From NCBI GenBank assembly GCA_038087875.1, contig CM075987.1, forward strand, positions 23,500,001 to 23,564,000: a DNA stretch of 64,000 nucleotides, given 5' to 3'. Below, piece by piece: positions 13,905-61,839 of this stretch; within the stretch, counting starts at the first letter, position 1; every line of letters starts with the position of its first letter. The translations under genes and the position numbers were made by a program. This stretch comes from Malacoraja senta (Eukaryota). The notes beneath the pieces were generated by a model. It was not told where the DNA came from and did no database searches. It was given only the letters and a program-made list of their open reading frames with translations.

Positions 13905-14660
13905 TGACAGAGTAATACAGCGTGGAAACAGACCCTTCGGCTCGACTTGCTCGTGCCAACCAACATGCCCCATCTACAGTGGTTCCATATCTCTCTAAAC
14001 CTATCCTATCAAGTACATGTCTAAATGTTTCTTAAATGTTGTGATCGGACCTGCCTCAATGACCTCCTTCAGCAGCTTGTGCCATACACCCACCACCCTT
14101 TGTGTAAAAAAAGTTACTCCTCAGGTTCCCATTAAATCTTTCCCCTCTCACCTTAAACCTATGTCCTCTTGTTTTCGATTCCCTTACTCTGGGCAAAAGA
14201 CTGTATGTTTACCCGATCTATTTCTCTCTCTCTCACAATTTTCCATACCTCTATAAGATCACACCTCATCCTCCTGCCCTCCAAGAAATAAAGTCCTAGC
14301 CTGCTCAGCCTCTTCCCTATAGCTCAGTCCCTCGAGTCTTGACAACAGGGGATATGGTGAGACGGCAGGAACGGGACACTGAATGAGGATGTTCAGCCAT
14401 GATCACAGTGAATGGCGGTGCTGGCTCAAAGGGACGAATCGCCTACTCCTGCACCTATTGTCTATATATCCCAGTAAATCTTCTCTGGACTCTTTCTGAA
14501 CCCTTTCAAGCTTGACAACATCTTTCCTACAACATGGTGACCAAAACTGAGCACTATACTCCAAATGTGGCCTCACCAACTATTGTTTTACACAAGTGTA
14601 ACATGGCCTCACAACTTCTATACTCTGACTGATGAAAGCCTTCTTGATCACCCTATCCAC
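13905..14660 (-). mobile_element. Degraded CR1-type LINE fragment with a second CR1 tail nested at about 14348-14465
   Basis: RT C-terminal remnants (gtgaggccacatttggagtatagtgctcagttttgg on the minus strand) and CR1 3' UTR. Confidence 0.7.
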
Positions 14661-18237: not shown

Positions 18238-19844
18238 TTAAATAAGAGGGAAAAGGGTAACTAAAGAGAGAGTGGGACCTCTCAGGAATAAAAGCAGTCA
18301 CCTCTGCGTGGAGCCACAGGAGATGGGCAAGGTCTTCAATGAGTATTTCTCATCTATATTTACCGAGGAGAAAGACAGTAGGACAGAGGAAATTGGAGCA
18401 GTCACTGGAAGTGTCATGAGAGCAGTCACTGGAAGTGTCATGAGAGCAGTCAGGGTTACCGTCGAGGAAGTACTGAAGGTACTGTCGTGTTTGAAGTTAG
18501 CCAAATCTCTAGGGCCTGATCAGATATATGCGAGGACATTGTGGGAAGCCAGAGAGGAAATTGTGGGAGCCCTGGTTGAAATTTATGAGTTGTCCTTAAA
18601 TACAGGAGAGGTTCCAGAGGATTGGAGGGTGGCAAATGTTGTGCCTCTTTTCAAAAGGGTTGCAGGGAAAATGCTGGGAACTATAGGCCGGTGAGCTTAA
18701 CATCTGTAGTTGGTAAGTTACTGGATAGTATTCTGAGGGATAGGATATACAGGCATTTGGATGGGCAAGGGCTGATTAGGGACAGTCAGCATGGTTTTGT
18801 ACGTGGGAGGTCGTGTCTCACAAATCTGATGTTGCTTCTCGGACTGAAGGCCTGTGACTAGTGATGTGCCACAGGGTTCGGTGCTGGGCCCGTTACTGTT
18901 TGTCATCTACATTAATGATTTGGATGAGAACACACAGGGCAAGATTAGCAAGTTTGCCGAGGATACAAAAGTTAGTGGTTTTGCAGATAGTGAAGATGGT
19001 TGTGAACAGGATCTGGGTCAATTGGCCAGGTGGGCAGAGGAATGGTTGATGGAATTTAATACAGAGTAGTATGAGGTGTTGCATTTTGGGATGTCGAATA
19101 AGGGCAGGACTTACACAGTAAATGGTAGGCCTCTTGGGAGTGTTGTAGAGCAGAGGGTCTAGTAGTATGGTTCCATGAAGGTCGAGTCGCAGGTAGATAA
19201 GGTGGTCAAAAGGGCTTTTGGCCTTCATCAGTCAGAGTATTGAGAATCGAAGTTGGGAGGTCATGTTGCAGTTGTATAAGACGTTGGTGAGACCGCATTT
19301 GGAATATTGTGTTCAGTTCTGGGCACCATGTTATAGGAAAGATATTGTCAAGCTTGAAAGGGTTCAGAAAAGATTTACGAGGATGTTGCCAGGACTAGAG
19401 GGTATGAGCTATAGGGAGAGGTTGAGTAGGCTGGGTCTCTATTCCATGGAGCGTACGAGGATGAGGGGAGATCTTATAGAGGTTTACAAAATCATGAGAG
19501 GAATAGATCACGTAAATGCACAGTCTTTTACCCAGAGTAAGGGAATCGAGGACCACATAGGTTCAAAGGTAAAGGGGAAAAGATTTAATGGGAATCCGAG
19601 GGGTAACTTTTTCACACAGACGGTGGGGGGTGTATGGAACAAGCTGCCAGAGGAAGTAGTTGAGGCTGAGACTATCCCATCATTTAAGAAACAGTTGGAC
19701 AGGTACATGGATAGGACAGGTTTGAAGGGGTATGGACCAAGCGCAGGCAAGTGGGACTTGGGTAGTTGGGACATTGTTGGCCGGTATGGGCGAGTTGGGC
19801 CGAAGGGCCTGTTTCCACACTGTACCACTCTATGACTCTATGAC
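18238..19844 (+). mobile_element. CR1-type LINE, 5'-truncated and internally deleted ORF2 (reverse transcriptase pseudogene)
   Basis: NYRPVSLTSVVGK, QHGFVRGRSCLTNL, VPQGSVLGPLLFVIYINDL, KFAEDTK (FADD motif mutated), LYKTLVRPHLEYCVQFW; frameshifts; (CTATGACT)n tail. Confidence 0.92.
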
Positions 19845-21500: not shown

Positions 21501-21767
<267 letters not shown>

Positions 21768-23782: not shown

Positions 23783-26088
23783 CTGTAACACAAGAGCGAA
23801 ATAAGAAATTTTAAAAAATGTTCCTGAAGTGACAGAAAGGACCTCTTCGAAACCATGTTATGCAGTCAATGCTAGCCCACCCTTCCCCGTGTGAAACAGA
23901 CATATACGGACACCAGGTGATAAAATAGGAAGCATCGCGAATATAGAGAATAACAGCCGCATTCTTTATTCAATACACAAGGATAGAGATCAGCATTTTA
24001 GAACTGCATTGACATTCCTTCTTCCAAAGAAATTCTATTGCTTTCATGATGCTGCCACGTAACATCAGATTAAGTCCCCCTTCTGTTTGCTCCTGAAGTA
24101 CAGGACTCAGGGAACCATTTTGGATGGAGGCTGGTGAACTTGCGAGGCCCTCTCACACAGGGTGGGACATGTGGGCTCTACCCAAGCAGGACTGGTGGAA
24201 CGAGAAGATAAACAGGGTTTTCTGGATACCCACAAAATGTTGGAGTAACTCAGCGGAACGGGCAGCATCTCTGGAGAGAATGGGTAATGTTTCGGGTCAA
24301 TACCCTTCTTCAGACTGAGCTCGACCTGAAGCCCAATGCTTCTCTCCAGGGATGCTGCCTGTCCCTCTGAGTTACTCCGACAATTTGTGTCTATCTTCCG
24401 TGTAATCTGCAGCTCCTTCCAATACATTACTGGATAGGGATGAGGAGCTGGATACTTTCCTCCTGCCCCATCGACCCTCTAACGTAGGGGAACTAATTCC
24501 CCAACGCCAAAATTCCCTTCCCCAACTGAGAACCGGAGAACGAAAGTCAGTGCACTCAGCAAACGGCCAGGGAACGTTGAGTTTTCTTGCTGTGTGCAAA
24601 GGTTAACTAATAGAATTTAAAGTCTTTGGGAATCTTGATAATAAAAATAACGAGAAAAGCACAAAGCACACACACAGCGCATGTTTTCATCAGCACCCTT
24701 TCAAGGGAATGTGTTTTGAACATTGTCAATTGCAGTGTTTCAGTGGCAGCTTGCCTCACCTAACAGTTGTGTACTTACAGCAAGTCCTTGAAAATACTAA
24801 GGGCTTTAGAGAATGTTGTAATTAATTTGTTCTCCCTTGAACAAGCAGTACATTGCATACAATTCTGGAATGTCGAGTTGCCCAACCTACCTCAAAAGAA
24901 AAAAACAATGCAACCTCTGACTGCATACATTACTTCATAAATGCAGTGAATCTCAACTCTGCATAATGTATTGAAACACCCTTGGTCAAAATGACAAACT
25001 ACCCAGTAATCCCTCTGTGACTTTCACCACCAGCCTTTTTGCCACTCTAGTCACATCTGCAGGTTATGATAGCTTTCAACACTGCAGAGATAGATTCTTG
25101 GTTAGTACAGGTGTCAGAGGTTATGAGGAGAAGGCAGGAGAACGTGGTTAGGAGGGTGAGATAGATCAGCCATGATTGAATGGTGGAGTAGACTTGATGG
25201 GCCAAATGGCCAAATTCTATTCCTATCACTTATGACCTTATGAACACCAGGCAGTCCATATTAAATCAGCTTAATCGCCATATTAAAGGCACTGTTACCG
25301 TTCCAATCTGACTTATTCCACACCCACCTTGGGGTAACAAAATCTTTATCACTGTGAACAATCAGAAAACTGATGAAGGATTTTCAGTCTGAAACATGAA
25401 GTCTGTTTCTCTCTCCACAGATGCTGCCTAACCTGCTGCTTGTTTGAACATTTTCTCTTTTAGTTCCTTAATACAATGGATTTGTACATGTTCTCCGATT
25501 TCACCCCACAGTTTGTTAGGGGCCTACATATTGTCGATTGTGTTAAATCAATAATTACAGCAAATGGCCCTGGTCTCCATGCCCCTGATTTATATACCAA
25601 AAAGAACAAGTCAGTAAATCCCTGGGTAACGTTACATCAACATCCTAGGGCATGTGCACTTCTGGATTACATTCATCCCACATTTAGGGAGATGCAGCTA
25701 ATAGAACTGGCAACTCATATTTCAGTGAGCCAGATTCAATCTTGACCTCTGGTGCTATCTGTGTGCAGTCAATATGTTCTCCCTTCTAGTTTCCTCCCAT
25801 GCCCCAAAACGTACATGTTGTTAGTTAACTGGCCTTAGTAAGTTACCCTCTTGTGTAGAATAGCAATAGAACCCTGCGGGGGTGGGGGTTGGAAAGAGGG
25901 TGATGGAGGTAGATGACGCCAATGAATGGGAAATAAAATGAGTCAGAGTGGGATGAGTATAGATTTTATTGATGTTGGAGCAGAGTTGGTAGGACCAAGG
26001 TGCAGAGCTCCATGATTCCATTCTGGAGGCACTAACCTGGTTTAAATACAGTCCTTGTCTAAGTCTGCCTTTGACACAACCATGGTAA

Positions 26089-26416
26089 CAGCCCTGTCCC
26101 GCGGTACAAATTCATTCCAAGAGCACTCCCGAGTTTGCCCCGATTCGAACTCGGAGATTTACGGTAAAGGCCACTCGTCGGTACTCGGGGCTCTCGTGGA
26201 CATTTTTCAACATGTTGAAAAATCTTCACGAGTCTTCCCGTGCTTACCTGCCATTAGCGAGTCTTCCCGAGTACCCGCTGTTAGCGTTACGAGCATCTAA
26301 GAGACGTCCCCGAGCTCCGACGTACCCGCTACGTTCATTCTCTGTACTTACGAGTTTGATTTTTTTTTTAACTCGAAGGAGCTCTTGGAATGAACTCGTA
26401 CCGTGGGACAGGGCTT
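26089..26416. mobile_element. MITE, Harbinger-like; inverted relative of the 62530-62838 copy
   Basis: TIR agccctgtccc.cggtac / gtaccgtgggacagggct; interior is the approximate reverse complement of the 62.5 kb element. Confidence 0.75.
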
Positions 26417-26916
26417 GGGAACATAGTTTACAACTAATATTTTCAACATTTAAAGCAATTCAGTTAACAGACTTTGCCCAGGCATGACAAGGGCGTGGCC
26501 GGTGAGCTGAATCCCACAGCACAATATAAATGCTCTAGCTATTTTTTTTAGAGAAATAGCTGGTGTAGTCCTACCTTGGAGTTCTTCATTACTTTAAAAT
26601 TACTCAAACTGAATTATCTTTCTACTCCTCCAGTTAACATTGTCACAATGATCCTAATTATCGGAACTTAGGCTCAGGATCTGAAGGGCAGACTCTATGT
26701 TTGCGATTAGATTATTTTAATACTATTTAAAACATAAGGTGTCATGTCTATCTGAATAATTCTATCCTTGAACATTTTGGTCAGCATGGTCACATCTATA
26801 TAATGAACTTACAGAAGGAAACTACTGCAGATGTCGGAAAGCTGAAATAAGAGCACAAAATGTTCGAATTACTCAGCAGATGAGGCAGCATTTCAGCAGA
26901 GGTAAAAGAGTTAGCA

Positions 26917-27508
26917 CAGGGGTGGGGAACCTGCGGCCTTCTAGGCCATTGAGTGTGGGCTTTTGAATGAATCCAAATTTTGTAGAACAAATCCTTTTAT
27001 TTGTATTTAAGAAGGAATTTCAGATGCTGGAAAATCGAAGGTAGACAAAAATGCTGGAGAAACTCAACGGATGAGGCAGCATCTATGGAGCGAAGGAAAT
27101 AGGCGACGTTTCGGGTCAGGACCCTTCTTCAGGTCAGGTCTGAAGAAGGGTCTCGGCCCGAAACGTCGCCTACTTCCTTCGCTCCATAGATGCTGCCTCA
27201 CCCGCTGAGTTTCTCCAGCATTTTTGTCTACCTTTTATTTTCATTAATATCTTTTTGTTCGTCTTTTATTATTTTTATTTAAATCTTAAAATGAACGTAT
27301 TTAAAATACCAAAGAGTAAAAGAAGATTCAACGAAATAATCCTCCCCGACTGACGGCCACAATTAAAACATTAGTAAGTCATGAGGGCTATTTTAACAAA
27401 ATAATGTACATTTTGAAGCATATCTAATTGAAGTTTCTTGGATGCGGCCTTATTAGATTACAGCTAACTTAAAGCGGCATTCCAACATGAAAAGGTTCCC
27501 CACCCCTG
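26917..27508. mobile_element. Non-autonomous hAT (Charlie-like) DNA transposon
   Basis: Perfect 16-bp TIR CAGGGGTGGGGAACCT and perfect 8-bp TSD AGTTAGCA (26909-26916, 27509-27516). Confidence 0.9.
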
Positions 27509-29879
27509 AGTTAGCACTTCAGACTGATGACATTTCATCTGAACCATTCTGAAACATTACTTCTTTCCTCTCTTCAGCAACGTTGCCTCACCAAACCTGC
27601 TGTTTTGTTTCAGATTTTCAACATTGCAGTATTTTGCTCTGGGTGCTAAATTATGACCTCACTTTTCCGCTCACAAAAATGCCGCATGACATGTTAACTC
27701 GCTTTTTCAGCATTGTTCCAAATCAACTATGGCCTCTAGCTCGGTTTAGGCAGTACTCAGATCGCTGCACTTTGGTCTAGTCGTACTCAAAAAGAAAGCA
27801 AAGATCGGTCATTCATTTGGCATTTTTGGTTGAAGATGGCTGAAAACGTCGCCTATTTCCTTCGCTCCATAGATGCTGTTTTTTTTAAGGAAGGGGTCAT
27901 TGGGCATTGACCAAGACGAACAACAACTTCCCATCTCTAACGTGGGAGGGGGTAGAAAAAAAAATTGGACAGTGATTCGGAGCAGAAACCTAATCTAACT
28001 ATTTTTCTCCAACTCGGGATCACTGGACAATCATCAGGAGCAGCAACCTCTGCAGGCTCTCCTTCTAATCTCAGGAATCACTGGACACTATCAGGAGAAC
28101 TACTGTTTGTCTAAGCAGGGGGGGGGGGCACTCTACAACAGCCAAGAGTAAGGAGTAACCAGACAGCCTTCGTTAGCAAGGACCCTGCCCACCAACTTTC
28201 CACGAGGAAGGTACCACAACATCTACCTCATCTTTCGTGCCCAGATTTTCCACACATTTCATGTTCTCTTCAACATCTGAGCAATCCCTTCAGACCTATT
28301 CCCTATCTATTTCCTTATAACCTTTTTGTATGAAAGAGGGTCTTGATCCAAAACCACCTATTCCTTTTCTCCAGAGATGCTGCTTGACCCGCTGAGTTAC
28401 TCCTGCATTTTTGTGTCTATCTTCAACCGATTCTATCTTACACTCATCCATTCCATCCTGATTGTCCCACCACCCTCCTGCACCAGGGGTAGTTTAGAGT
28501 AGATAATTAACCCACCAAAAAGGACATCTTTGGGTGGAAGCCAGAACACCCGAGAAAACCACATGATCACAGGAAGAATGTGCAAACTCCACGTGGCACT
28601 GAGGTTAAGTTTGTACCCAAGTCTCTAGATATGTAAGTAAGTAAGTAAATTGTATTTATTTAGCACGTTTTAAATCCTCGCGTTGAAACCAAAGTGCTTT
28701 ACATAAAAGAAATAATAAAAGAAATAATAGTTTCCATACATCCATAGAAAAATTAAAAATCAGAAAAATGACACAACACATTACAGAATTCAACAAGAAC
28801 GTCCCCCCACAACAGAATCAAAATTTTCCACTGTGGGGAAAGGCAACAAAAAGTTAAGTCCTCTTCCTCTGTGAAACACCCGAGGTCGGGGCCTATTTGT
28901 GGCCTCCGCAGCCAGTCCGATGTTTTCAGGCCCTCTTTTTGGGATATGTGAGGTAAAAGTCACCAGGCCTCTATCCATGTTACTCCATCCAAGGTCTAAG
29001 CAATCATTTATGAAGTTTTAGCAAAGTGTTTTTCATTTTAAAAAAGCATGCCTTATTCAAGCCACATGCTTATTAAACACTTTATCAACATGTCCTGCCA
29101 CCAGTAAGAAATTATTTCCCCGGTCTGTCTGCTCATCTACTCTTTTCACAATGGTGCCATTTGAAAGTAGGATAGAAACGTAGAAGAATCTTGCACCAAA
29201 ACAAGGAGAAAAACAGGTTAACTTGGTCCTGTGCCCAGAAACAGAAGACCAATGACTCAAGCCAAAAAAATCACATTCCTCATGGGATATAATCGTTCAT
29301 AAATTAATTCTTCACAATAATCAAATTGCAGCAATTGAAACCGTCAAGTCTACAAAGGGCTTCAGTGATTCATTATAAAGAAATCATTATATAAACTGAG
29401 GACAGGAGGGGCTGAACTGAAGCTAATGTTAAGAGTTAGACGACAACAAAAAAGTTCAGGAGTAACTCAGCAGGTCAGGCAGCATCTCTGGAAGACATGG
29501 ATTGGTAACGTTTGGGGTTGGGACCCTTCGTCGATTCAGTTTAGTTTATTGTCACGTGGACCGAGGTACAGTGAAAAGCCTTTGTTGCGTGCTAACCAGA
29601 CAGCGGAAAGACAATGCGTGATTACAATCGAGCCACTCACAGAGATCCAGACTAGAGAAATGGTGAATGAGGGCAAGACAAGAATAGAAGATAGCCCAGG
29701 GCAGGGAAGTGTAGAGGGTAAGTCATCCAAAGGAATTGAGGAGAAAGGTAGCAATACGGAAAGAAAGGGAAGTTGACCCATGGAAGAAAGGTCAAACAGG
29801 GTGAAGGGGAGTCAGCAGGAAACAGGAGGTGACCATGTGCATTTTAATTATTCCCAGTGCAGCGCGCCTTTAAGAGTCA

Positions 29880-31020
29880 CTAAAATAGGTGGTATCGCAG
29901 ATAATGAAGGAGATGATCAGGAATCTTGATCAGCTGGGTAAGTGGGCCACGGAATGCAAAATGGAGTTTAATTCAGATAAGTGTGAGGTGTTTCATTTTG
30001 GGAAGTCAAATCAGAGAAGGACCTTCACAGTGATCAGCATGTCTCTGGGGCTCATTATAGAACAGAGGGACACAGTTCCCTGAAAGTGGCATCACTGGTG
30101 GACAGGGTGGCTTCTGTCATGCTGGCCTTCATCGGTAAGGGTACCGAGTATAGAATTTGGGCATTTTGTTGCCGTTTAGAGATATGTGGGAACATGCCCT
30201 TCGCCCACCGAGTCCACGCTGACGAATAATCAAGAAATACATTAGTTCTATCCTACACTCTAGGGACAATTGAATGAAGCCAGTAAACCTACAAACCCGC
30301 ACGTCTTTGCAATGCGGGAGGAAACCGGAACACCCGGAGGAAACCCACGCGATCACAGGGAGAATGTGCAAACTTCGTACAGATAGCACCTGTAGTCAAG
30401 ATCGAACCTGGGTCTCTGGTCTCTGTAAGGTTGTGCAAGGCATTGGTGAAGCTGCATTTTGGAGCAATGCGTTTAATTTTGGTCACACTGCTATAGAAAA
30501 GATGCGATTAAAGCTGTAAAGAGTGCAGAAAAGGTTTTTGGGGACGTTGCCAGGACTCAAGGGACTGAGTTAAAGGGAGAGGTTGGGCAGGCCGTGACTT
30601 TATTCCATGGAGTGCAGCAGACTGAGAGGTGCTCTTCTAGAAGTGTATAACATCTTGAGGGGCATAGATCAATGCACAGTCTTTTTCACACAGTTGGTCA
30701 ATTGAGAACTAGAGGGCATAGGTTTTAAGGTGCAGAGGGAAAATTTCCGCTGGAACTTGAGGGGCAACTTTTTCCTCTCAGAGTAGTGTGTATATGGAAC
30801 AAGCTGCCAGAAGAAGTGATTAATAATAATAATAATAGATTTTATTTATATAGCGCTTTTCAGGGCAGGTACAACATTCAAAATACATTTGAACAGGTAC
30901 ATGAATAGAAAAAAGGATTAGAGTGATCTGGGTCAAAACACAGTAAAATGGGACAAGTTTAGATGGGCATCTGGTTTGGCAGGCACAGGTTGGGCTGAAA
31001 GGACTGTTTTCATGCTGCAT
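29880..31020 (+). mobile_element. Degraded CR1-type LINE with a nested HE1 SINE (about 30175-30430, minus)
   Basis: LDQLGKWATECKMEFNSDKCEVFHFGKSN; CR1 tail gggctgaaaggactgtttt. Confidence 0.8.
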
Positions 31021-32847
31021 GGCTATGTTTCTGTGGCATCCATGATGGGAGGAAAGCTCATTGTGGACAGTGAAGTGTTTTTTATGGAGTGTGAATGTCT
31101 CACGTTCTCTATGAATGGGTGTCCTTCCAATATTTAATTCAGTTTTGTCGTTGCAGTTAAATGATGGGAGACGCAAAATCTGATACTGTCGGGATACAAG
31201 AATGAAAGAACCAAACTAAAATCAACCTGAGAGAAGAGTGGAGACACACGAGTGTGATTAAATTGGAAGACAAAGGGTCTGATCACCTAAGCAATGGATT
31301 GAATTAACAGTTTAAATTTTCATTCACCTCATGCCAAAACTGAGAGCTGCTGATAGACACACAAAGACAGGTATTGCACAGGATTGATTTAGAACCAATC
31401 TAAAAAGTTACATAGAATAAGCAGGCCTAATAAGGGACAATTTAATTACAGCTCTGCTGCGGTCTGAGTGCTCATGCCTGGGCTTGACCGTCCTACTTAC
31501 TCTTCTGTGACAGTGAAATAAAGACAGGACAAGATGAGAAACGCAAGCCAAGCCCGTCTATCAACTTCGGATGTGCAATAAGGAAAAGTGCTGTGCTGTT
31601 GAATACACTATGACCTGTTTTGAATACATAACACTTCAAAGATACCCTCTGCTGAAAGTTAACAAATTAGCTGCAGCCATAAATACTGCATGCTCCTGGT
31701 GATCATGGCAAAAGGGGCTGGAGTTAAGAGGAGCTGAGGTTAAAAGAGGTGGAAGGCAGAGGGGAGGCATTAGACATTCTGCAGTGTGCAACAAAAACAT
31801 GTTAGCGTTTTTGTTGGTTAACAAGCTGAATGAATCATTTTAGAAACAATTCTAATGGACCTCCATTGGAAAATATTGTTATATTATTTAAAAAATATAC
31901 ACTTTCAACAGCTCTTTAAGTAGGCCATGGAGGAAGAGATAGAAGTGGAAAGGAGGTTGTTACTATGCAGAAAGAAAGGTTTACAAAACCCTATGTGTAG
32001 GAAAGAACTGCAGATCCCGGTTTAAATCGAAGATAGACACAAAGTGCTGGAGTAACTCAGCGGGACAGAATGCTGCCTGTCCCGCTGAGTTAATCCAGCA
32101 TTTTGTGTCTATTTACAAAACCCTATTTTCCTTTATTAATATATAATCTTCAAGACATTATCATTAGCTTGCAAAGACCAAGTACTTCAGCTCAGTCAGA
32201 TACGACACATTGTTCAGCTGGGGTCTGTGCAGTTTAGTTAATGTGGCCATTAACAATGACCGTCTGAATTACAGGGGAAATGCTTTGGTTCACCATCTTT
32301 CTGTTCCTTGGTGATATTTACAGATCAGCAAAATGCTTTGGAAAGATTTGTTCTGTGACAGATATTGTACTAAAAGGAGTCAGCTGAGTGCAAGAGGAAT
32401 GAATCTGGGGATTGAAGACCGGGACAGTTTGACAAGCCCTCCCCTGACAGTCAATACTTCTTCCAACAGGCATGTAATCTTCAACAAAACATCACTTGTT
32501 TTATGAGAGGGAGAGAAGAGGGGGGATGTCAATAGAGCACGTCATAGCAACATCAGTTGCAGAGTAAAGCTCACCCTGAACCGTAACCCTAATGTGTCGA
32601 ACGGAGTGAAGTAGACAGATCCATCAGCCACACACGACACGTGGGAACAACAAGATTCAAACTATTACACCATCTAAACTATTTCTCAATCGAAATGCAC
32701 TTGATGCAAATCATACTTCCAAGTATTCTCCTTTGCAATGCTTTATGGAAAGGGAAATAGAATGTAAATAAAAATCACACCATTGATTGCTATCTATGAA
32801 CACTTAATGTGCTCCTTCGTACGTGAATCATGTGTCGTGCCGTACCT

Positions 32848-33153
32848 TGGGTGGCGAGGTGGTGGAGCAGTAGAGCTACTGCATTACAGAGCCAGAGACC
32901 CAGGCTCGATCCTGAACACGGGTGCTGTCTGCATGGGGTTTGTACGTTCTCCCCGTGACCTGCGAGGGTTTTATCAGAGATCTTTGGCTTCCTCCCACAC
33001 TCAAAAGCCGTGCAGGTTTGTAGGTTAATTGGCCTACAAGTATAAGTGTAAATTGTCCCTAGTGTGTGTGGGATAGTGTTGGTGTGTGGGGATCGTTGGT
33101 TGGCGCGGATTCGGTGAGCCAAAGGGCCCGTTTCCACGCTAAACTAAACTAAA
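32848..33153 (+). mobile_element. HE1/V-type SINE flanked by diverged direct repeats of about 180 bp
   Basis: SINE family match; flanks 32660-32840 and 33161-33345 are similar to each other. Confidence 0.8.
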
Positions 33154-33976
33154 ATAAACAAACTACTACACTACCTAAACGATCCCTGAAACAGAGGGCA
33201 AGTAAAACACATTTGATGCAAATTACACCAAGTATTTCCCTTTGCAATGGTTTGAGGAAAGGGAAATAGTATGTAAAAAAAAAAACTTACACCCCTGTGC
33301 TATCTATGAACACCTAATATGCTCCTGCATGCGTGAATTATGTGTTTCGCATGCACCTCAGCTATTCCAGATTGGTACGATACATGGCCGTCAAATGGCC
33401 TAGTCAATACTCAATCTTCACACATTATAAATGAGAATGAGGCATCAAATGGTACCACTATGTCCGAGCCTTGAACCCGAAAGTCACCATTCCCATGCTC
33501 ACTGACTGACAATGGCTCCCAGGCCCAGGAAACATTATCCACATTTACAAATTTCCCCGCTTGACTCACTCCTCAAGATCGCTACTCTCTCACAGCCCCT
33601 CAAATGTTTGAGATGTCTGCACTTCTCCACCTCTGAGCTTTGTCGTCCCATCATCCTCAGCCTTTATGCAGCTGCACAGATCCTAACATGACAGAATTTC
33701 CTCCATAAACATCTTGAGCTCCCGGTCGTTAAGACGTTTGAACTCTCCTCCTCATTCCCACACTGATATGTCTGTTCTCGGTCTCCTCTGCCGCCAGGGT
33801 GAGGCCAAATGCAACTCTTGGGTGCTCAACAGCCTGAAGATTGAGGTCTCCAATCTCAGGTAATGCACCCCCCCCCCCCCCCCCACCCCCCCTGTTCAAT
33901 TCACTCTTCCTCTGAATGACACATGACCTCACACACACATTTCCCCTCCCAACCCATCCTGCCAGTGTCCTAAGAA

Positions 33977-34463
33977 GTGCAGCGTAGGTTTACAAGGTTA
34001 ATTCCCGGGATGGCGGGACTGTCATATGCTGAGAGAAAGGAGCAGCTGGGCTTGTACACTCTGGAGTTTAGAAGGATGAGAGGATATCTCATTGAAACAT
34101 ATAAGATTGTTAAGGGTTTGGACACGCTAGAGGCAGGAAACATGTTCCCGATGTTGGGGGAGTCCAGAACCAGGGGCCACAGTTTAAGAATAAAGAGTAA
34201 GCCATTTAGAACGGAGACGAGGAAACACTTTTTCTCACAGAGAGTGGTGAGTCTGTGGAATTCTCTGCCTCAGAGGGCGGTGCAGGCAGGTTCTCTGGAT
34301 GCTTTCAAGACAGAGCTAGATAGGGCTCTTAAAAATAGCAGAGTCAGGGGATATGGGGAGAAGGCAGGAACGGGGTACTGATTGGGGATGATCAGCCATG
34401 GTCACATTGAATAGCGGTGCTGGCTCGAAGGGCCGAATGGCCTACTCCTGCACCTATTGTCTA
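33977..34463 (+). mobile_element. CR1-type LINE 3' end (young subfamily)
   Basis: QRRFTRLIPGMAGLSYAER...RRMRGYLIETYKI...FFSQRVVSLWNSLP; almost the same peptide as 63440-63811. Confidence 0.9.
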
Positions 34464-36479
34464 TGCACTCAATCCACTGAGCCCCCCATGCCCTCTCTGT
34501 TGTTCCCAACTGTCCACCAATGATAGGCACATGCAGGGAATGGAGGGATATGGATTATGTGCAGGCAGATAAGAGTTGATCTTGGCATCATGTTCGGCAC
34601 AGACAATGTGGGCCGATGGGCCTGTTCCTGTTCTGTCCCTTATCTGGTTCCACTCGCCACCTTTTATCAGAGTCAATAATCCACAGCCCCTTGATGTCCT
34701 CACTTATCACCTCCCAGCATCTGTCCCCATCTCCACCCTCCCCTCCGCAACTCCATCAAACCCACCCCGCTCAACCACACTTGCCAGCCCCTGCCTCCAC
34801 CCTCACCCCTTGTTTCTTCACATGGCCATTTCCCCTCGACAGCCAGAGTCCTGATGCAGGGTCTGACCAGAAACGTTGACTATCTCCGTCTCCACTGATG
34901 CTGCCTGTCCACTGAGCAACTTTTTTGTTTCAGTCTGAAGAAGGGTCTCAACCCGAAACGTCGCCTATTTCCTTCGCTCCATAGATGCTGCCTCACCCGC
35001 TGAGTTTCTCCAGCATTTTTGTCTACCTTCGATTTTCCTGCATCTGCAGTTCCTTCTTAAAAACGTGTTGGTTTTTTTTGCTCGCATGACTAGTTAGCTT
35101 ATTCCCGATCATAATTCTTCTCACGTACTACCCACATTTTACTGTGGCCCGATAAAATGCAAAAATGCAATTCTAGCTGCATCCCATTTGGACCGACAAA
35201 ACTTAGAATGTCTGACAGTGCAGTGAAGAGAGGGAGCAAGGATTGAGAATTTCACGCAGTTTCATAACTTCACACACCAGAGCAACGTCTCACGGCTCGC
35301 AGTGAATTAAATCAAACACGATCAAATCACTGTTGCCATTCAAATGCTCGGATTATGCAATTGGTCAAGCATGTTCGAGAGGGGATGTCTGAAAAAAGAC
35401 GGTAGTTAAAGCAGAACAACAGACAATTTCCTGAAACTCCTGCAAATCGTCTACTTTAATTAGGATTGTGAGCGCTCTGAAAATTCAGACGTTAATAAAA
35501 GACAGAGACAGCCGAGTGTGTGTGGGTTGGGGGGGGGGGGGCTGAGAGTATGAGCTAACAAGCATGAGCAACACCTGCAGGCAATAAAACTCAGAGAGAA
35601 ACAGGAAGCCCAGGCCAGGGTTGCCCGGGAGGAGGTGCTGGTGACGCCAGCCAATTCATCTTGCTGCCGATTAGCAGGAGGCCTTCGCTGGGACAGGCTC
35701 CTAGCTCGCAGGCATACAGGAAGGCAGCTAATGAAACCCATAAGGGAGCTGTCTGAATCAGCATGGAGAATGGTATTCTTGGCACAGGCACTGCTCTGTA
35801 TTTATCCTGCTGACCTCATGCAAGCTTCCACACACAGTCGTCTCATGACTCTGTCATTTTGACTGCAGTAGTTCAGGAATGCCAGGGGTTCGAGGCCAGA
35901 ACAGGGGGTGGGAGGAAGGACAAGATCCTTGGCAATTTTTTAATTTTTTTTTTTTACCCAGCGCTGGCTTTCTGAGGTTAGCGAATGCCTTACTTGTGTG
36001 TTCGAGCACTACCCAGTGCTGTCGCGGGGGTGGGCGCAGTTCAGAAAGAAGAAAACGCTGCCCCAAGAAGCTATTTAAAAAGTGACAGCAATCTCACTTT
36101 TGCAACAGCACCTCACCTCATCTCAGCAACCCAGACTCCATTTGCTTAAGCTAAGGAAAAACATAAGAGATCCAAAGAAAAATGTATCCCATGTGTAGAT
36201 CAGGTTACAAGCTTGGCACACCACACCCCAACTCAGGGTCAGCAGGGTAACAACCCAGGCCACTCCACAGTCGAGTTCAGGAAAGATTCAGGCACAGGGA
36301 GCCAACTTGCCTCCTCGCCTCATGGTGGAAAATGAGGTACACCAGAAACCAACACAATTCACGAAGCACTCGCAATATATTTCAGGAACCCTTTAACTCC
36401 AGCTCGCAAGATCATCTGTCCTCTGGTCACTGCACAAGCAGGGCACTCCCCACCGTAGCACCAAGGACACTGTAGGGAC

Positions 36480-37120
36480 ACTCAATCCAGCTCTCTGTCT
36501 GCAGAGACCCGACCACTCTGTCACCCTGGCTCACTGTGGGATCCCAGGCAGCTATGCCTCAGCTCACTGAAATAACCCAGGCAGCCCTCTCCCCAGCTCA
36601 ACACAACAAACCACGGCACCCTCTCCCCAGTGTAATGTATGAACCTCAGCACCCCTCTCCCCAGCTCATATACAAACCCCAGCACCCCGCTCCCGGTACA
36701 ATACATGAACCCTGACACCTCTACCCCCAGCTCAATGCACGACCCCCAGCAGCCCTCTGCTCGGCAGAATACAGGACCCCAACATCCCTCTCCTCAGCTC
36801 ATGCAACAACCCAACTGCCCCCTCTCCTCTTAGCTCACGGCTAAATTTGACACCCCTTGCCCTCGCTCAATTGAGGAGGAAACAAGGTAGCCCTCTACAT
36901 TCCTGAGCAGGAACCGAAGCACCCATCAAACCTCAATCCCAGCAGGAACGCGGGTACCCTCATCCCCAGCTCACGGCAGGACACCGTGCAGCTTACACCC
37001 CCAGATTACTGCAGGAACTGGAGCACTCCCGTCCCTAGCTAACAGTGTCCACGTGAGCACCCCTTTACCTACACCACTGCAGGGACCTGGGTAGCTCTCT
37101 CCTGAGATCACTGCAGAATC
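36480..37120. repeat. Degenerate minisatellite, period about 33 bp
   Basis: Recurring cagcacccctctccccagctca..ca(t/g)gaaccc units. Confidence 0.65.
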
Positions 37121-37129
37121 CTAATCATC

Positions 37130-37143
37130 AGGTCATCAGGTCA
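37130..37143. promoter_or_regulatory. Perfect DR2 nuclear-receptor element AGGTCAtcAGGTCA (candidate RARE)
   Basis: Exact consensus half-sites with a 2-bp spacer; function not shown. Confidence 0.35.
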
Positions 37144-37227
37144 CCACGGCAACATAAGCACCCCAATTCCAAGCTCAGCCTCTGCAGGATTCAAAGTACA
37201 GGAATTTGGTGACAAAGAGAATTCGAA

Positions 37228-37397
37228 TCATAGAGTCATAGAATCATAGTGTGTGGAAATAGGCCCTCGGCCCAAGTCAGCCAACATGCCCCATCTAAAC
37301 GGGTCCCACCTGCCTGCTTTTGGCCCATATCCCTCTACACCTACCCTATCCATGTACCTGTCTAAATGCTTCTTAAATGCTGTGATAGTACCTGCCT
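37228..37397 (-). mobile_element. Short CR1-type LINE 3' end abutting the inverted exon copy
   Basis: [25 protein letters not shown] plus (CTATGACT) tail. Confidence 0.8.
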
Positions 37398-37411
37398 GGT
37401 GAGACCAAAGC

Positions 37412-37589
37412 ATGAGGTGGAGTCCACGAGCAGTGCCAATGAGGACATGCCAGTGGAGAAGATAGTGGAGGCAGAGCTGGCTGTTGAGCCCAAGACTGAG
37501 ACTTACATCGACTCCAACCTCGAATGAGCAGCAGCTACACACACACACACACACACACCACAGCTACGGATCATAGTACCGGGAGGCAC
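37412..37589 (+). pseudogene. Inverted partial duplicate of RXRA exon 5 and the start of the following intron
   Basis: atgaggtggagtccacgagcagtgccaatgaggacatgccagtggag...actccaacctc matches the reverse complement of 10069-10179 with 2 substitutions; then a 1-bp deletion, loss of the donor, the CA tract and the intron flank to 9991. Confidence 0.93.
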
Positions 37590-37874
37590 GGTGGTGCAGC
37601 AGTAGAGTTGGGACCTTATAGACCCAGAGACCCGGGTTCAATCCCGACTACGGGTGCGGTCTGTACACAGTTTGTACTTTCTCCCCGTGTTTTACCCAGG
37701 TGCTCCAGTTTACACACACACTCCAAAGACGTACAGGCTTGGAGGTTAATTTGGCTTCAGAAAAACATTGTAAATTGTATCTGGTGTGCCGGATGGTGCT
37801 AGAATGCAGGGATCGCTGGTCGGCACGGACTCGGTGGGCTGAAGGGCTTGCCTCCGTGCTGTATCTCTAAACTA
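37583..37874 (+). mobile_element. HE1/V-type SINE following the exon copy
   Basis: SINE family match with ctaaact tail. Confidence 0.85.
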
Positions 37875-38619
37875 ATGTTCATATCCCACTGAATGCAGAT
37901 GTAAAGCTTGTACGGGATCAACTATACACTGCTATTATAGTTTTGAAACAAGATCTTGTTTATCATAGGTGGGAACATCAAACAAGCAAACCTGAAGTGT
38001 GTGCAACCAATATATATATATACCAACGGGTCTCCTGTCCTAGATGCCCAAATACTCTCGATTACTGTTCCGTAACCAGCGACGATGCCTACCACATATC
38101 CCCTGGCCACACCAAGTACAATATAATTTGTATTTGTTAGTCTGTGTTCAAGATGGCGGTCGGAGGGAGAGTGGACGCTGGCGTTAAATTGCCGCTGCTC
38201 TCTCCTCAAATTGTGCTTCTGATTTTCTTTTTCTTGTGTTTTTGGAAGGAATTCTGTCCTGATTTATGTATTGGTCTTTATAACCTATTTTTTTTAAAAT
38301 TCTGATTATATGTTTTCTATAAATCTCTGTATGGTGTCCTTGAGACCTCGGTATAAGGCGCCCGTAAATAAAATCCATTATTATTATTAATATGACCAGG
38401 TGACTGTGCTCCGACTGCCATTCAGAAACTGAAGTACAACATTCTGGCACAGAAAGTCGTACAGTGCTGTTCTGAGCAAAGAGATGAGCTCCTACCTGAC
38501 TGCTTTGAGTCGGTGGGCTAGTCCACATGCAAGGACTCTGCAACCATACTAAATGAACATGCCACTGCAAACAGAGTGGCATTAAGTGTGTAGAGGATTG
38601 CGTGCCCAAAAAAAGTCAG

Positions 38620-39420
38620 GCCAAGTGTTGCTCCAACTCCATTTACAAGTTTGCAGGTGACACTACCGTAGTAGGCCAGATCTCAAACAACCGTGAGATG
38701 AGAGTGGAGAAAGGAGATAGAGGGGATAGCATCCTGGTGTCAAGAAAACAACTTCTCCCTTAATGTCAGCAAAATGTCGGAGCTGACCATTGACTTCGAG
38801 AAGTGGGATGTGTATAAGCCCAGTCTGCATCAATGGAGCCGTAGTGTTGATGGTCAAGAATCTCGGGATCAACATAGTATAAATATCGCCAACAATTAGT
38901 CTTGGTCCAACCATATCAACCTATAGTCAAGAAAGCACATCAACACCTCTACTTCCTCAGAAGTCTAAGGATACTAGGCACATCACCAATGACTCTCACC
39001 AACCATAAAGAACATCCTCTCACAGATTGGTATGTCAAGAGTGCAAGAAATTGCAGAGTTGTGACTGCAGTCCATCAAGAAACAAGCCATCACCCCGATT
39101 ATCTCGTGTAAGAAAGAACTGCAGATCGAAGGTTGACACTTTAAAATGCTGGAGTAACTCAGCGGGTGAGGCAGCATCTCAGGAGAGAAGGAATGGGCTG
39201 AAGAAGGGTCTCGACCCGAAACGTCGCCCATTCCTTCTCTCCTGAGATGCTGCCTCACCCGCAGAGTTACTCCAGCATTTGTGTCTACCCCGATTATCTC
39301 CATATATCAAATTGCGACCATTACACGTTTTGTAATCAGCACTTTCTCTGCAGCTGTAACACAATATTCTGCACTCTGTTTATTTTCTCTTTGGTACTGT
39401 CTGATGTCATCATTTATGGT
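38620..39420 (+). mobile_element. Degraded Rex1/Babar-like LINE fragment with a nested Penelope palindrome (about 39110-39290)
   Basis: aagtttgcaggtgacactaccgtagtaggc (KFADDTTVVG-like); IVKKAHQHLYFLRSLR. Confidence 0.65.
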
Positions 39421-39499
39421 AAGATTTGCCTGGAGAACATACAAAACAATGTTTTCCAATGTATTTTTGGTGCACACGACAATGATAATAAACGAATAC

Positions 39500-42400
39500 C
39501 AAGTAGTAAGAAATAACTTTGGCTCAGAAGTTCAGGAAGTAGAATCGGGTTGGGTGCGGATAAGAAATAGCAAAGGAAATAAATCATTGGTGACGTTAGT
39601 CTCTAGGCCACAACATCAGAGATTCAATCGTGAAGTAAATTAAGAGTGCATTGTAACTAAGAGTTATTGAATTTAATCTTCATATAGGTGAGCAAATTAA
39701 ATTGACAACACAGCAGTTCTTTGAACGCATTCGAGACAGTTTCCCAGAAAACGGCATGGCGACAGTAGAGCTACTGCCTGCCTTACAGCACCAGAGACCT
39801 GGGTTCAATCCTGACTACTGGTGCCATCTGTACAGAATTTGTACATTCTGCCTGTGACCTGTGTGGGTTTTCACCGGGAACGCCGGTTTCCTCCCACACT
39901 CCAAAGACGTACAGGTTAGTAGGTCAATTGGCTTGGTAGAAGTGTAAATTGTCCCCCTCGTGCGTGTAGGATAGTGTTAATGTGCGGGGATCGCTGGTCG
40001 GTGTGGACTCGGTGGGCCGAAGGGCCTGTTCCCGCGCTGTATCTCTAAACTGAACCAAACAGATTGTGGATGTAATAAAAGAATAGTCTAGTTTAGGTCT
40101 GGTCATGTACACCTTTATAGATGATTAATCAGTGATCTGAGAGTAAAGAATGCTCTGTGAAGACTGGTCAGAACATGACAGAATTTCACATTCAGTTTGG
40201 CAACGTGTTGCATAGGTCCAAAATTACAGTCTTAAACTTAAATAAAGGCAATCACATTGGTTTGAAGGTGGAGCTCGCGAAAATGGTTTGGGATATTAGA
40301 TTAAAAGGAACGAAGCTGGGCAAGCTGTGACAGACAATTAAAGAAATGCATCAGAAGTCTCAAAGATATATATTCTGTCAGACATAAAGACTCGACAGCA
40401 AAGTGGATTCATCTGCAGCCAATTCAAGAAATGAAGAATTGTACTAGAGCGAAAGAAAATATTTATAAATATTATAATAAAAATTGGCAGCGTGAGATTG
40501 GGTAACATTTTTGAAATCAGCAAAGGAAGACTAAAATTAGAGTGCAAGAGTAAACCATCAAGAAAAATAAAACAGATTATCAAAGCAAACGGTAAACATT
40601 GAACACTTAGAAGCCAAGACAAAAGAATTATTAAAGTGGGGTGGGTGGGGAATAAGGAAATGGGAGAGACGTTAAACAAATACTTGCGTTCAATTTTACA
40701 GTATTAAACTAAAAGTGTGTGATGGTAAGAAACAATGGGGCAAAAAAAGGGTCAAGGAAGGTACATATTATGTCAAAGGAGGCAGCCATTCAGCCCATTG
40801 AGTCCATGTCAGCCCTCAGCAGTCCCATTCCCACTTGTTTTACTCGTATGTCACCCATGAACATATTCTCTCAAGACAAACACAAAATGCTGGAGTAGCT
40901 CAGCGGGACAGGCAGCATCACTGGAGAGAAGGAATGGGTGACGTTTCAGGTCGAGACCCTTCTTCAGTCATCCATTCCTTCTCTCCAGAGATGCTGCCTG
41001 TCCCGCTGAGTTACTCCAGCATTGTGTGTCTATCTTCAGTTTAAACCAGCATCTGCCGTTCCTTTCTACACATATTCACTCTAATTCTTTTGCCACTTAC
41101 CACGAAGGGACAGATTACATCAGCCAATGTAGCCTTCAAGCATACACTCATTGTTGTGCCATCATGGCACTTCAAGTATATTAAAGGGACTAAAAGCTGA
41201 CCAGTCCCCTGGACCTGCATCTTCGGCTTCTAAATATGGTGCATTTCCAGGGAATGCAATGGTTCAATCTTTGGGCGCTCCTGCCAGAGAAGGATCTACT
41301 ATCACCCTGTACAATCGCTCGACTCTTTTAAATCTCTTTTCTACCTGCAAGTATAAACGACATTCAACTACAATGATGAGAACTGTATTCTGCACTTTGT
41401 ATCTTCCACTTTGCTCTTTTATCCTTGAGTTTGACGATTGTATTTATGTATATCTGATCTGCTTGGACAGCGTGAAAATCAACGTTTTTCACTGTACCTT
41501 GTGACGTGACAATAATAAACCTAAACCTCTCAAAATTCCCGACATGCTGCAACATTCCCAGTGAATTGGAACATAAGTGTGACACCATGATACAAGAAAG
41601 GAGGTAAAAGAGAAAATAAAGAACAATGGGCCATTTAGGCAAACATCTGTCATTAGGAGGCTAAAAATGCCATCCATTGAGAACGCCCAGAAATTCACAA
41701 CCCAATTACAGAAAATCAAGAGTTTACAAAAGCATATTTGACTAGCTTCATTGGAATCGGTTTGAGAATAATAGCGGGGTAAATGAAGGGGTGGCCCTGG
41801 ATGTAGAGTATTTTACTTTCCTAAAACGTTTGAAAAGTTGCCATATCAAGTGTTACTTAATAAGAGATTTTGTGGTACTGAAAGTATCGGATTCACGTGT
41901 ATTGAGGATTGGCTACCCAGCAGAAAAGAGACAAGAAAGTCATTTTCAAGTTGGCAAGTAATAATTAGTGGGGTGTCACTGGGAGCATTTAAAATTGACA
42001 TTAGTGACTTCAGATGAAGAGAGTTTTATCATATTGTAGACAAAGATAGGCCACAAAGTAAATTACAAAGGCATAGAAAGTCTGCAAAGAGACATACACA
42101 GGTTAAGTGAGGCAGCATGGACAAGATAGACCAAGGGCCTGTTTCTATGCTGTATTACTCTGTGACTCCAAGATGATGGGAATGAGGGAACTGTGAGGTT
42201 ATCTACTTCAGTAGGAAGTACAGGTGGGAAACTGATGAAGATTGGCAAGTAGAGAAATCTGATGGCCCTCATTGAGTTTACAATACTAGCAAGAATATTG
42301 TAAGGATGGCCGTTATTGGAGGATTGAAGTGTAGAAATGAGCACGCGGTACAATTGCTGCAATTGTACAAGGATTGAGTGGGACCCCGCCTGGAGTATAG

Positions 42401-44585: not shown

Positions 44586-44785
44586 NNNNNNNNNNNNNNN
44601 NNNNNNNNNNNNNNNNNNNNNNNNNNNNNNNNNNNNNNNNNNNNNNNNNNNNNNNNNNNNNNNNNNNNNNNNNNNNNNNNNNNNNNNNNNNNNNNNNNNN
44701 NNNNNNNNNNNNNNNNNNNNNNNNNNNNNNNNNNNNNNNNNNNNNNNNNNNNNNNNNNNNNNNNNNNNNNNNNNNNNNNNNNNNN
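44586..44785. other. Assembly gap (200 N)
   Basis: Run of N; the round length suggests a scaffolding gap of unknown true size. Confidence 0.97.
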
Positions 44786-50714: not shown

Positions 50715-50987
50715 TTTAGTTTAGTTTAGTTTAGAGATACAGCGCGGAAACAGGCCCTTCGGCCCACCCAGTCCATGCACCCCGCACTATCCTATTCACA
50801 CAAGGGACAATTTACACTTATTCCGAGCCAATAAACTTACGTGCGGGGAGAAACCGAAGATGTCGGAGAAAACCCACGCGGTCAGGGGGAGAGCGTTCAA
50901 ACTCCGTACAGAGAGCACCCGCAGTCGGGATTGAACCCGGGTCTCTGGCGCTGCAAGGCAGCAACTCTACCGCTGCGCCACCGTGGT
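50715..50987 (-). mobile_element. HE1/V-type SINE
   Basis: Family head and (TAAAC)n tail on the minus strand. Confidence 0.85.
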
Positions 50988-52043
50988 CGCCCTGGACAGG
51001 TAATGGAGAAACAAGGAACTGCAGATGCTGGTATACAACAAAAAAAACCACACAAAGTGCTGGAGCGACTCAGTGGGTCAGGCAGCATCTCTGGAGAACA
51101 TGGATAGGCGAGGTCGGGATTGTGTTCATTCCACAATAATCAACATGATGACAGGTTGATAGGCTGGCTAAGGGAGAATGCAGATTCAATTCCATGCGAT
51201 CAATCCCCTTCATATGGAAGGTACACAATAATGCTGGAGAAACTCAGCGGGTGCAGCAGCATCTATGGAGCGAAGGAAATAGGCAACGTTTCGGGCCGAA
51301 ACCCTTCTTCAGACACCTTCATATGGATATCCCCTTTATCAATGAGGTGACAAAGTAATACAATCTCCTCGTTTACAACAGCGTGAAACCACTTGGACAC
51401 ATGGACTGCAGCCAGGTAACAGGTAGCATCACAGATACACACAAAATGCTGGAGTAACTCAGCGGGTCAGGCAGCATCTCTGGATGCTTATTCACTACTC
51501 ATTTCCTTCCTGCACTCAAACTCACTTGGACCATCTCCGACATCTCCCTATCCTTTTCTGATCTCACCTTCTCCATCACAGGAGATAGACTATCGACTCT
51601 CATCTATTTTATAGAGTCTGAAGAAGGGTCTCAACCCGAAACGTCACCCATTCCTTCTGTCCAGAGATGCTGCCTGTCCCACTGAGTTACTCCTGCTTTT
51701 TGTGTCTATCTTCGGTGTAAACCAGCATCTGCAGTTCCTTTCTACACATGATGGAAAGCATTATCTCCACCATCTCAGGGAAATAAAGAATGGGAAGTAA
51801 ATGTGTAGGAAGGAAGTACTGGTTTACACTGGAAGGCTGGTTTACACTGAAGAAGGGTCTTGACCCGAAATATCACCGATTCCTTTTTTCTCCAGAGATG
51901 TTGCCTGGCCCGCTGAGTTACTCCAGCTTTTTGTGTCTATCTTCAATGGGAAGTAAATGGTGATCTCGTCAGCAGTCTTTACATTCCATGGCAGAGAGGG
52001 GAGAAGAACAAAGGGATTGGTCACACTGAGGTACTAACAGTAA

Positions 52044-60839: not shown

Positions 60840-61839
60840 ATCTGAAACAGGCTCCTTTCTGTTTTCCACAAACTGAACTTAAAGAATTCACAAAAGGTAG
60901 ACACAGAGTGCTAGTTTGCTAGTTTACACGGAAGATACTGCAGCGCTTTAAACGCACCTCAATCAAGCTTCCCGAACAATTAAAGAGAAATGACCCTCCA
61001 ACCCTATCTTGGTTCCAGATAAGAAACACAAAGTGCGGGAGTATCTCAGCTGGTCAGGCAGCATCTCTGGAGAAAAAGGATGGGTGACGTTTTGGGTTGG
61101 GACCCTCCTTCAGACTGAAAGTATATTGTATTAGTTCTGTGAAGGCTTGGAATTGATTGGAAGACAATAAGCAAGAATGTAGAGACAGAGAGGCCTACAG
61201 CACATTATTTGGGATGAAATATACCTGCAGGACCTAGAGGTGCATAAGACCAGCAGGGGAACAGGTATGGTGAACCCAGAGTAGGGGGGTCAGGAAGCAG
61301 GGAACCAGGTGAGTTTTCAGGTCGGGACCCCTTTTCAGCCTGAGAGTGGACGGGGGTGGGAGGTGAAGAGTTGGAGGCAAGGAAAGACCAGGACCAATCA
61401 AGGCCGGCTACAAATCTGACTTCAGGCTGGGCGGTGTCTGGCAAGCCCGTTGTTGGCTGGGGTAGGTGTGATCTCAAGAGGGAAACAATGTGGTGAATTG
61501 GGGAACTGGTGAAACAACTAGGGTGGTGGAAGGGGGCAAAGGGGGAGAGGAGTGTAAATACAAGTTAATTAAAAATGAGAGAATTCAACGCAGGCTAGTC
61601 GATCGTTTAGCTGAATTCGTGGAACTCTCTGCCACAGAAGACAGTGGAGGCCGATTCACAGGATGCATTCAAACGAGAGTTAGATGGAGCTCTTTGGGCT
61701 AGCGGAATCAAGGGACATGGGGAGAAGGCAGGAACGGGGTACTGATTGTAGATGATCAGCCATGATCACACTGAATGGTGATGCTGGCTCGAGGGGCCGA
61801 ATGGCCTACTCCTGCACCTATTGTCTATGTATCTATGTA

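Follow-up and report, generated by a model that had tools for sequence, protein, structure and literature searches.

A probable break-repair scar: an inverted fragment of skate RXRA exon 5, 27 kb upstream of the exon itself

Template switching at microhomology gives rise to templated insertions, a well-established class (PMC8421209, PMC11724301), and RNA-templated break repair has been described as well (PMC11390984). The sequence reported here, about 170-180 nt that hold most of exon 5 and the start of intron 5 of RXRA, inverted and 27 kb upstream in the same gene, resembles the templated insertions of this class (MMBIR/FoSTeS, synthesis-dependent end joining; PMC8421209, PMC11724301) in being a single inverted copy in cis with the donor left intact, in having one short-homology junction and another with filler and sequence loss, and in lacking the hallmarks of transposition. 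It differs from them in that ~170-180 nt were taken from 27 kb away by an event that is reconstructed, and in that the apparent homology is supplied by the heads of two diverged SINEs and not by a few random bases. Intronic editing-site complementary sequences (ECS) of ADAR targets, such as those of GluR-B (Q/R and R/G) and the intronic element of Gabra-3 (PMC1920255, PMC3479170), offer a second comparison, in that they are complementary to a coding exon of their own pre-mRNA and able to form a long duplex with it; the RXRA copy shares the complementarity to a coding exon and the predicted duplex, and is probably intronic too.

Inverted repeat pairs, e.g., inverted Alus that act in exon looping and circular RNA formation, likewise place inverted complementary arms in one pre-mRNA, and the arms described here enclose exons 3 and 4; unlike in those purely intronic pairs, exon sequence makes up most of one arm, which also spans the donor region, and 17 longer intronic inverted pairs would compete with it. 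Known ECS lie close to their exon, whereas the RXRA copy lies 27 kb upstream of it, across two exons, and is not conserved above its flanks. Its likeness to the ECS is confined to its complementarity to an exon; its position is probably intronic, with the A/B exon not found (see below), and distance and lack of conservation speak against membership among the ECS. Chimeric retrocopies formed by template switching of LINE reverse transcriptase are known as well, and these, like 5'-transducing SINE/LINE copies, resemble the present locus in that a 5'-truncated piece of a gene adjoins, in register, the 5' end of a retroposon; here, in contrast, the adjoining SINE is far older than the fragment, and the SINE at the source is not its parent.

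Source gene and anatomy of the copy

The window, i.e., the whole stretch of 64 kb that was analysed, is part of an assembly of 1.94 Gb and holds RXRA on its minus strand. Exons were placed by tblastn of a 456-residue skate/ray RXRA protein (P0003), which matched the exons found at 94-100% identity, and a protein search with the translation of exon 5 found RXR-alpha proteins of sharks, skates, and rays, the best of them 100% identical. The following exons were located; the last exon lies just below the window.

RXRA exon 3: 23785-23630, minus strand, start of the DNA-binding domain (tblastn 100%, P0003 residues 80-131)
RXRA exon 4: 21716-21507, minus strand, rest of the DNA-binding domain, between the two arms (tblastn 98.6%, P0003 residues 130-199)
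RXRA exon 5: 10221-10052, minus strand, 170 nt, hinge region, acceptor and donor both read (tblastn 100%, P0003 residues 198-254)
Start of intron 5: 10000-10051, minus strand, the donor GTGAGT followed by the CA tract and 24 unique nt; apart from the donor, copied at 37537-37580
RXRA exon 6: 7928-7797, minus strand (tblastn)
RXRA exon 7: 4992-4858, minus strand (tblastn)
RXRA exon 8: 4223-4122, minus strand (tblastn)
RXRA exon 9: 1565-1458, minus strand (tblastn)

The start of exon 5 is 10222 by tblastn and 10221 by reading of the splice site, and the latter was used. In the direction of transcription, exon 3 is the exon nearest downstream of the copy, at a distance of 13.6 kb. Two further features of the gene were recorded. 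An alternative donor of exon 4 lies 21 nt past the usual one (21507-21527, minus strand) and adds the residues GMGADFR before the hinge; these are present in P0003 and absent from P0004, and since batoid RXRA proteins are annotated with 456 as well as 449 residues, the donor seems to be a conserved alternative. These batoid entries are annotated genome proteins and not transcripts, and they carry no information on editing. Positions 1-1066, which belong to the intron separating exon 9 from the last exon, are densely filled with tandem arrays whose periods are ~37 and 53-55 nt.

A repeat search of the window detected two inverted arms, 10069-10182 and 37409-37522, that are complementary at 97% over 114 nt, and fine alignment extended the homology of the copy to the RXRA source as far as 37580. 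The copy is composed of two parts:

Exon-derived part: 37412-37536, plus strand, reverse complement of 10179-10054, with 3 substitutions (37425, 37473, and 37527) and one 1-nt deletion
Intron-5-derived part: 37537-37580, plus strand, aligned with 10043-10000, made up of a CA tract as long as that of the source and 24 unique nt of the intron

Positions 37409-37521 align with 10182-10070, with mismatches at 37411 (at the edge), 37425 (C versus A), and 37473 (A versus C). The source base 10069 is missing from the copy, and this 1-nt deletion breaks the reading frame of the exon-derived part. Positions 37522-37536 then align with 10068-10054 with a single mismatch at 37527, after which 10 bases (source 10053-10044) are missing, comprising the final 2 bases of the exon and GTGAGTAC, so that the splice donor GTGAGT is lost from the copy. 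Two further mismatches, at 37569 and 37573, fall in the intron-derived part and bring the total to 5 substitutions in 169 nt. The copy starts 42 nt inside exon 5 and carries neither splice site, and tblastn aligned 37402-37521 with residues 209-248 of P0003. In the frame of the exon, the substitutions at 37425 (TCA>TCC) and 37473 (GCC>GCA) are at synonymous third positions and the one at 37527 reads GGC>AGC. The initial annotation, which had described 37412-37522 as the reverse complement of exon 5 with two synonymous changes, was right in this respect and overlooked the third substitution at 37527; its account of a 1-bp deletion, loss of the donor, and retention of the same CA tract and intron flank agrees with the fine alignment. 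Because intron 5 sequence is present in the copy, its source was DNA or unspliced RNA and not mRNA, as had also been proposed there.

Searching the whole assembly (1.94 Gb) with 37409-37589 returned only the copy itself and the exon 5 locus (E=1.5e-69, 91% identity over 181 nt), a match that is not due to chance. With two copies only in 1.94 Gb and an intact donor locus, the fragment is a one-off copy and not a member of a mobile family. To the left of 37409, no homology to the 5' part of exon 5 was accepted, the ~7 of 14 positions that agree by eye being dismissed, and an Rfam scan of 36500-38500 gave no match at E<=1.

Presence in other sequencing runs and rate of change

Logan contigs of four public sequencing runs were aligned to 36800-38200. 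The left junction is bridged with 0 differences in organism A by contigs of two runs (X1 record 7, 37368-37455; X2 record 16, 37368-37522), whose flanks are identical to the window and which may share the source of the assembly itself. In organism C, from another study, the left junction together with the filler next to it is bridged by a single contig (X7 record 29, 37348-37520) over 173 nt with 8 differences and no gaps. With its left junction bridged in both A and C, the copy is real, orthologous in at least two organism labels, and must predate the A-C split. The CA tract at 37526-37567 was skipped as a repeat in the contig alignment, and the right junction is therefore taken from the assembly only. 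Divergence of the flanks from the window amounts to 45/745 (6.0%) for organism C and 43/707 (6.1%) for organism B.

At 37425, both contigs of organism C (record 29 across the copy junction and record 30 from exon 5) have A, as does exon 5 in the window, which identifies the C in the window copy as a later change on the copy side, after the A-C split. The fragment is covered in organism B (X3), where one contig reads A at 37425, out of a depth of 12.5, and a second sequence with C at this position seems to exist; no bridging contig was among the rows listed for this organism, in which the copy is likely present. An empty site was not seen among the organism labels aligned (A, B, and C). In word-based comparisons, six runs guessed to be RNA (X18-X23) contained a share of 0.08-0.10 of the query words, which is expected from the true exon alone because 38 of the 471 words recur elsewhere in the window; shares of 0.16-0.22 were obtained for runs X4-X6 and X8-X17 (organisms B and D to I).

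The initial annotation had proposed to compare the divergence of the copy with that of neutral flanks. The A-C comparison gave 8/173 differences in the copy region and 45/745 in the flanks (p=0.59), i.e., the copy diverges at about the flank rate. The 4.6% of the copy is nominally lower than the 6.0% of the flanks, with small counts and with the positions of 7 of the 8 differences not visible. The 3 substitutions in 125 nt of exon-derived sequence fit the share of one lineage in this divergence (P(>=3)=0.72 at 3%), and in addition to them this part has suffered deletions of 1 nt and 10 nt. Conservation of the copy above the flank rate was not found in the comparison of A with C (8/173 versus 45/745, small counts), and the copy decays at about the neutral rate, as far as these counts can tell. 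That both substitutions in the 111-nt core are synonymous is, by rough estimate, a ~1-in-16 coincidence and counts against a neutral reading. With no constraint seen relative to the flanks, a neutral relic, which had been the fallback of the initial annotation, is the better reading.

Flanking repeats and origin of the copy

Four elements delimit the copy and its source:

Repeat X: 37228-37397, plus strand, truncated interspersed repeat on the 5' side, i.e., the left flank (blastn matches to window copies at 19663-19843 and 30871-30967)
Filler: 37398-37411, plus strand, 14 nt at the left junction, the last 3 bases of which may already pair with the source
SINE-B: 37581-37884, plus strand, old tRNA-derived SINE whose head is the right-hand limit of homology and whose body lies outside the duplication
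SINE-A: 9695-9999, minus strand, in intron 5, sense to RXRA, same family as SINE-B, lower boundary approximate

At the left junction, repeat X ends abruptly at 37397, whereas the two other copies in the window run on for more than 250 nt further. Resumption of repeat X after the insertion was not found within 37000-39500; a 28-nt match considered as resumed repeat X was rejected, as it proved to be an AT-rich insert in another copy of the repeat. The filler matched only itself in the window at up to 2 mismatches. A truncated repeat followed by unique filler resembles the junctions of end-joined breaks.

At the right junction, the start of the SINE (GGG) was placed at 37581 in the copy and at 9999 at the source by alignment of 12 window copies and their flanks. 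The 24 nt before the SINE start are unique intron sequence common to both loci, and at both loci homology of high identity ends at the first bases of the head of a ~300-nt SINE. The head is tRNA-like: ARAGORN called a tRNA-Cys at 50915-50988 (minus strand) in the least decayed copy of the window, and this call is a SINE head and not a stand-alone tRNA gene. The head of SINE-A is without 8 nt (9990-9999, in the box-A region) that are kept by SINE-B and by most other copies, and the order of this deletion and the duplication sets the homology that was available for a template switch.

The two SINE bodies are much more diverged than the fragment next to them. SINE-A and SINE-B are 75% identical to each other, SINE-A being 78-80% identical to 4 other window copies and SINE-B 77-81% identical to 39 other genome copies, among which SINE-A does not appear (40 scored of 5872 candidates). 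Scored against a consensus built from the other 10 copies in the window, the two SINEs have 7 derived states in common, SINE-B has 38 of its own and SINE-A 25, and 3 differ in both, which makes 66 unshared versus 7 shared states, with no indel in common; the SINE-A-only count is slightly inflated since MAFFT misaligned ~20 columns of the SINE-A head around the 8-nt deletion. The SINEs differ from each other at 66/275 aligned positions, compared with 5/169 for the fragment (Fisher p=2e-10), and derived positions number 48/275 in SINE-B versus 3/125 in the exon part (Fisher p=7e-6). Had the exon part the age of SINE-B, ~22 substitutions would be expected in its 125 nt, of which 3 are seen (P=6e-7). 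SINE-A and SINE-B are thus old, independent insertions. Inspection by eye of 37380-37600 and its flanks revealed neither a poly(A) tract nor a target-site duplication nor terminal repeats.

From this anatomy, we consider it probable that, in an ancestor of several skate-like species, a single DNA-repair or replication template-switch event left the copy as a scar (a templated insertion of the kind made by MMBIR, FoSTeS, or synthesis-dependent end joining), which has drifted neutrally since. The event would have begun with a break just 5' of the head of SINE-B in intron 2 of RXRA. The end carrying the SINE-B head would then have annealed in register to the head of SINE-A, 27 kb away, inverted, and 52 nt into intron 5. 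Synthesis would have left SINE-A, copied first the 24 nt of intron, then the CA tract and the donor, and halted after ~125 nt of exon 5. End joining of the new end to the other side of the break, which lay within repeat X, would have introduced the 14 nt of filler and cost the locus the remainder of the repeat. The template may have been DNA or nascent RXRA pre-mRNA, which the data cannot separate; as SINE-A is sense in the pre-mRNA and the acceptor site is in the same gene, nascent pre-mRNA is as plausible a template as DNA. Neutral drift would later have added 5 substitutions, the 1-nt deletion, and the 10-nt deletion that took the donor, although both deletions may also stem from error-prone synthesis during the event itself.

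Several observations are those expected of a templated insertion. The inserted stretch is copied from elsewhere, the donor is intact (exon 5 is 100% identical to P0003), and the copy number is two. High identity ends at two SINE heads that are in register and share the stretch GGAGGCAC. The exact homology of the heads is short, with 8 nt (GGAGGCAC) and a G/T mismatch just before, and it is longer only if the 8-nt deletion of SINE-A postdates the event. Hallmarks of transposition or retroposition were not seen on inspection by eye: with intron included, a start inside the exon, and no poly(A), target-site duplication or terminal repeats, the copy is neither an mRNA retrocopy nor a transposon. 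A processed, mRNA-derived retrocopy was accordingly rejected, given 44 nt of intron 5 in the copy and no poly(A). Some 180 nt brought from 27 kb away are long for polymerase-theta-type insertions.

Two other origins were weighed, and both appear unlikely. According to the first, the copy would be part of an ancient chimeric retrocopy, formed when a reverse transcriptase jumped from the 5' end of SINE-B RNA to RXRA pre-mRNA at the head of SINE-A and copied into intron 5 and exon 5; gene conversion or selection would afterwards have preserved the resemblance of the exon part to exon 5. Such a jump would account equally well for the in-register junction at the SINE heads and for the 5' truncation within the exon, and SINE-A has the required sense orientation in the pre-mRNA. 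The ages do not match, however, with 48/275 derived positions in SINE-B against 3/125 in the exon part (Fisher p=7e-6), and among the genome copies scored (40 of 5872 candidates), the 39 closest to SINE-B reach only 77-81% identity. A SINE-borne transduction is likewise at odds with a SINE-B that is neither of the age of the fragment nor a daughter of SINE-A (75% identity; 7 shared versus 66 unshared states). The additional conversion or selection that this origin requires left no sign in a fragment that drifts at the flank rate, and a target-site duplication around the whole unit was not found by eye.

The second origin, which we rate as equally unlikely, is that of a remnant of a larger inverted segmental duplication (exon 5, intron 5, and SINE-A) that has mostly been deleted or has decayed, the exon-proximal 170 nt having been refreshed by gene conversion. 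Inverted repeats in cis can exchange sequence by gene conversion, which makes such a refreshment conceivable, and the order of exon fragment, CA tract, flank, and SINE is the same at both loci. Against it, homology was found neither past the 3' ends of the SINEs nor to the left of 37409, the SINE bodies share 7 of 73 derived states and no indels while each has closer relatives elsewhere, and the conversion tract would have to stop exactly at the SINE head.

Position in RXRA and possible pairing with exon 5

The A/B-domain exon (P0003 residues 1-79) had no tblastn match in the window, including the gap-free stretch 23786-37408. A genome search with residues 1-99 returned only the part belonging to exon 3, and tblastn of five RXRA proteins on the 200 kb upstream (23564001-23764000) gave only weak, low-complexity matches on the wrong strand. 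Since the exon is absent from the gap-free 23786-37408, it must lie upstream of the copy, and it may be located in a gap (44586-44785 or L021 8070-8269) or further upstream. The first of these is a scaffold gap of 200 N in the presumed intron 2 of RXRA, 7 kb upstream of the copy; L021 8070-8269 is the second gap. By this inference, the copy very probably lies inside intron 2 of RXRA and is antisense to the gene. Start of RXRA transcription upstream of 37.6 kb, on which the initial annotation had made its proposal of antisense control depend, is likewise made probable by the absence of the A/B exon from 23786-37408.

A copy in intron 2 and antisense would allow a duplex with exon 5 in the pre-mRNA. 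The predicted duplex of the 114-nt core has -236 kcal/mol, as compared with -59 +/- 7 for 50 shuffles, and over ~200 nt the prediction is -367 kcal/mol, with the donor in a 10-nt bulge. Seventeen longer inverted-repeat pairs exist in the same window, some at 96-97%, so that the exon 5 pair would be one of many possible duplexes. A young repeat family was noted among the inverted pairs (94-97%), with 33997-34464 / 63357-63824 (pair I1, 468 nt) and further copies at 1885-2122, 14346-14485, and 61612-61828; it occurs within and around the RXRA transcription unit and forms pairs longer than the exon 5 pair.

The initial annotation had suggested cis-antisense control of RXRA by the duplicated exon. 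As a working arm, the intron 2 copy would pair with exon 5 and the donor region, thereby hiding the exon or its 5' splice site, attracting ADAR, or placing the exon 3 acceptor close to the exon 5 donor, which would favour a circular RNA of exons 3-5. Its presumed antisense position inside the transcription unit, the strength of the predicted duplex, and its persistence in at least 2 organism labels ~6% apart are compatible with such a role, and intronic complements are known to define exonic editing sites and to affect splicing (PMC1920255, PMC3479170). However, the copy is under no detectable constraint (8/173 versus 45/745 in the flanks, p=0.59), a change that creates a mismatch arose at 37425 after the A-C split, and two deletions have occurred in the copy. 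Moreover, 27 kb separate the arms, a distance that takes in exons 3 and 4 as well as portions of three introns. Splicing is co-transcriptional, and over this distance intron 2 can therefore be removed before exon 5 has been made. With these points and the 17 longer pairs, cis-antisense control is unsupported, and we regard a working arm as quite improbable. The consequence claimed for exon skipping does hold on its own, since exon 5 (10221-10052) measures 170 nt and its omission would shift the frame.

More doubtful still is that the fragment has become a young partner in editing or splice masking. The donor of exon 5 would then sit in the 10-nt bulge between helices, and some tissues would show less inclusion of exon 5 (with a frameshifted product and mRNA decay), editing of the hinge by ADAR, or a circular RNA of exons 3-5. 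Most likely, the copy could pair with exon 5 in the pre-mRNA but would do so without function. An assembly artefact by a chimeric read or misjoin, to which the 200-N gap 7 kb away (44586-44785) and a right junction inside a CA tract uncrossed by short contigs might point, can practically be dismissed, as the left junction is bridged in two samples of organism A (0 differences) and in organism C from another study.

The copy, which we favour as a repair scar, is a real, ordinary, and probably neutral relic with a neat mechanistic signature. Numerous nuclear receptors have RXRA as a central partner, and an effect of RNA pairing on it would, if shown, be a notable case of self-antisense control, to which the evidence does not point; if the fragment were a young editing or splice-masking partner, a repair scar would have given a nuclear receptor a self-targeting control loop. 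Taken alone, the copy is a small scar in an intron and probably harmless. It is a clean, datable example of how break repair may copy a fragment of a coding exon backwards into its own gene with dispersed SINEs as the alignment point, and it would add a further route by which SINEs shape genes. Scars of this type may be the raw material for intronic elements complementary to exons, i.e., editing partners, splice-masking stems, and arms of circular RNAs.
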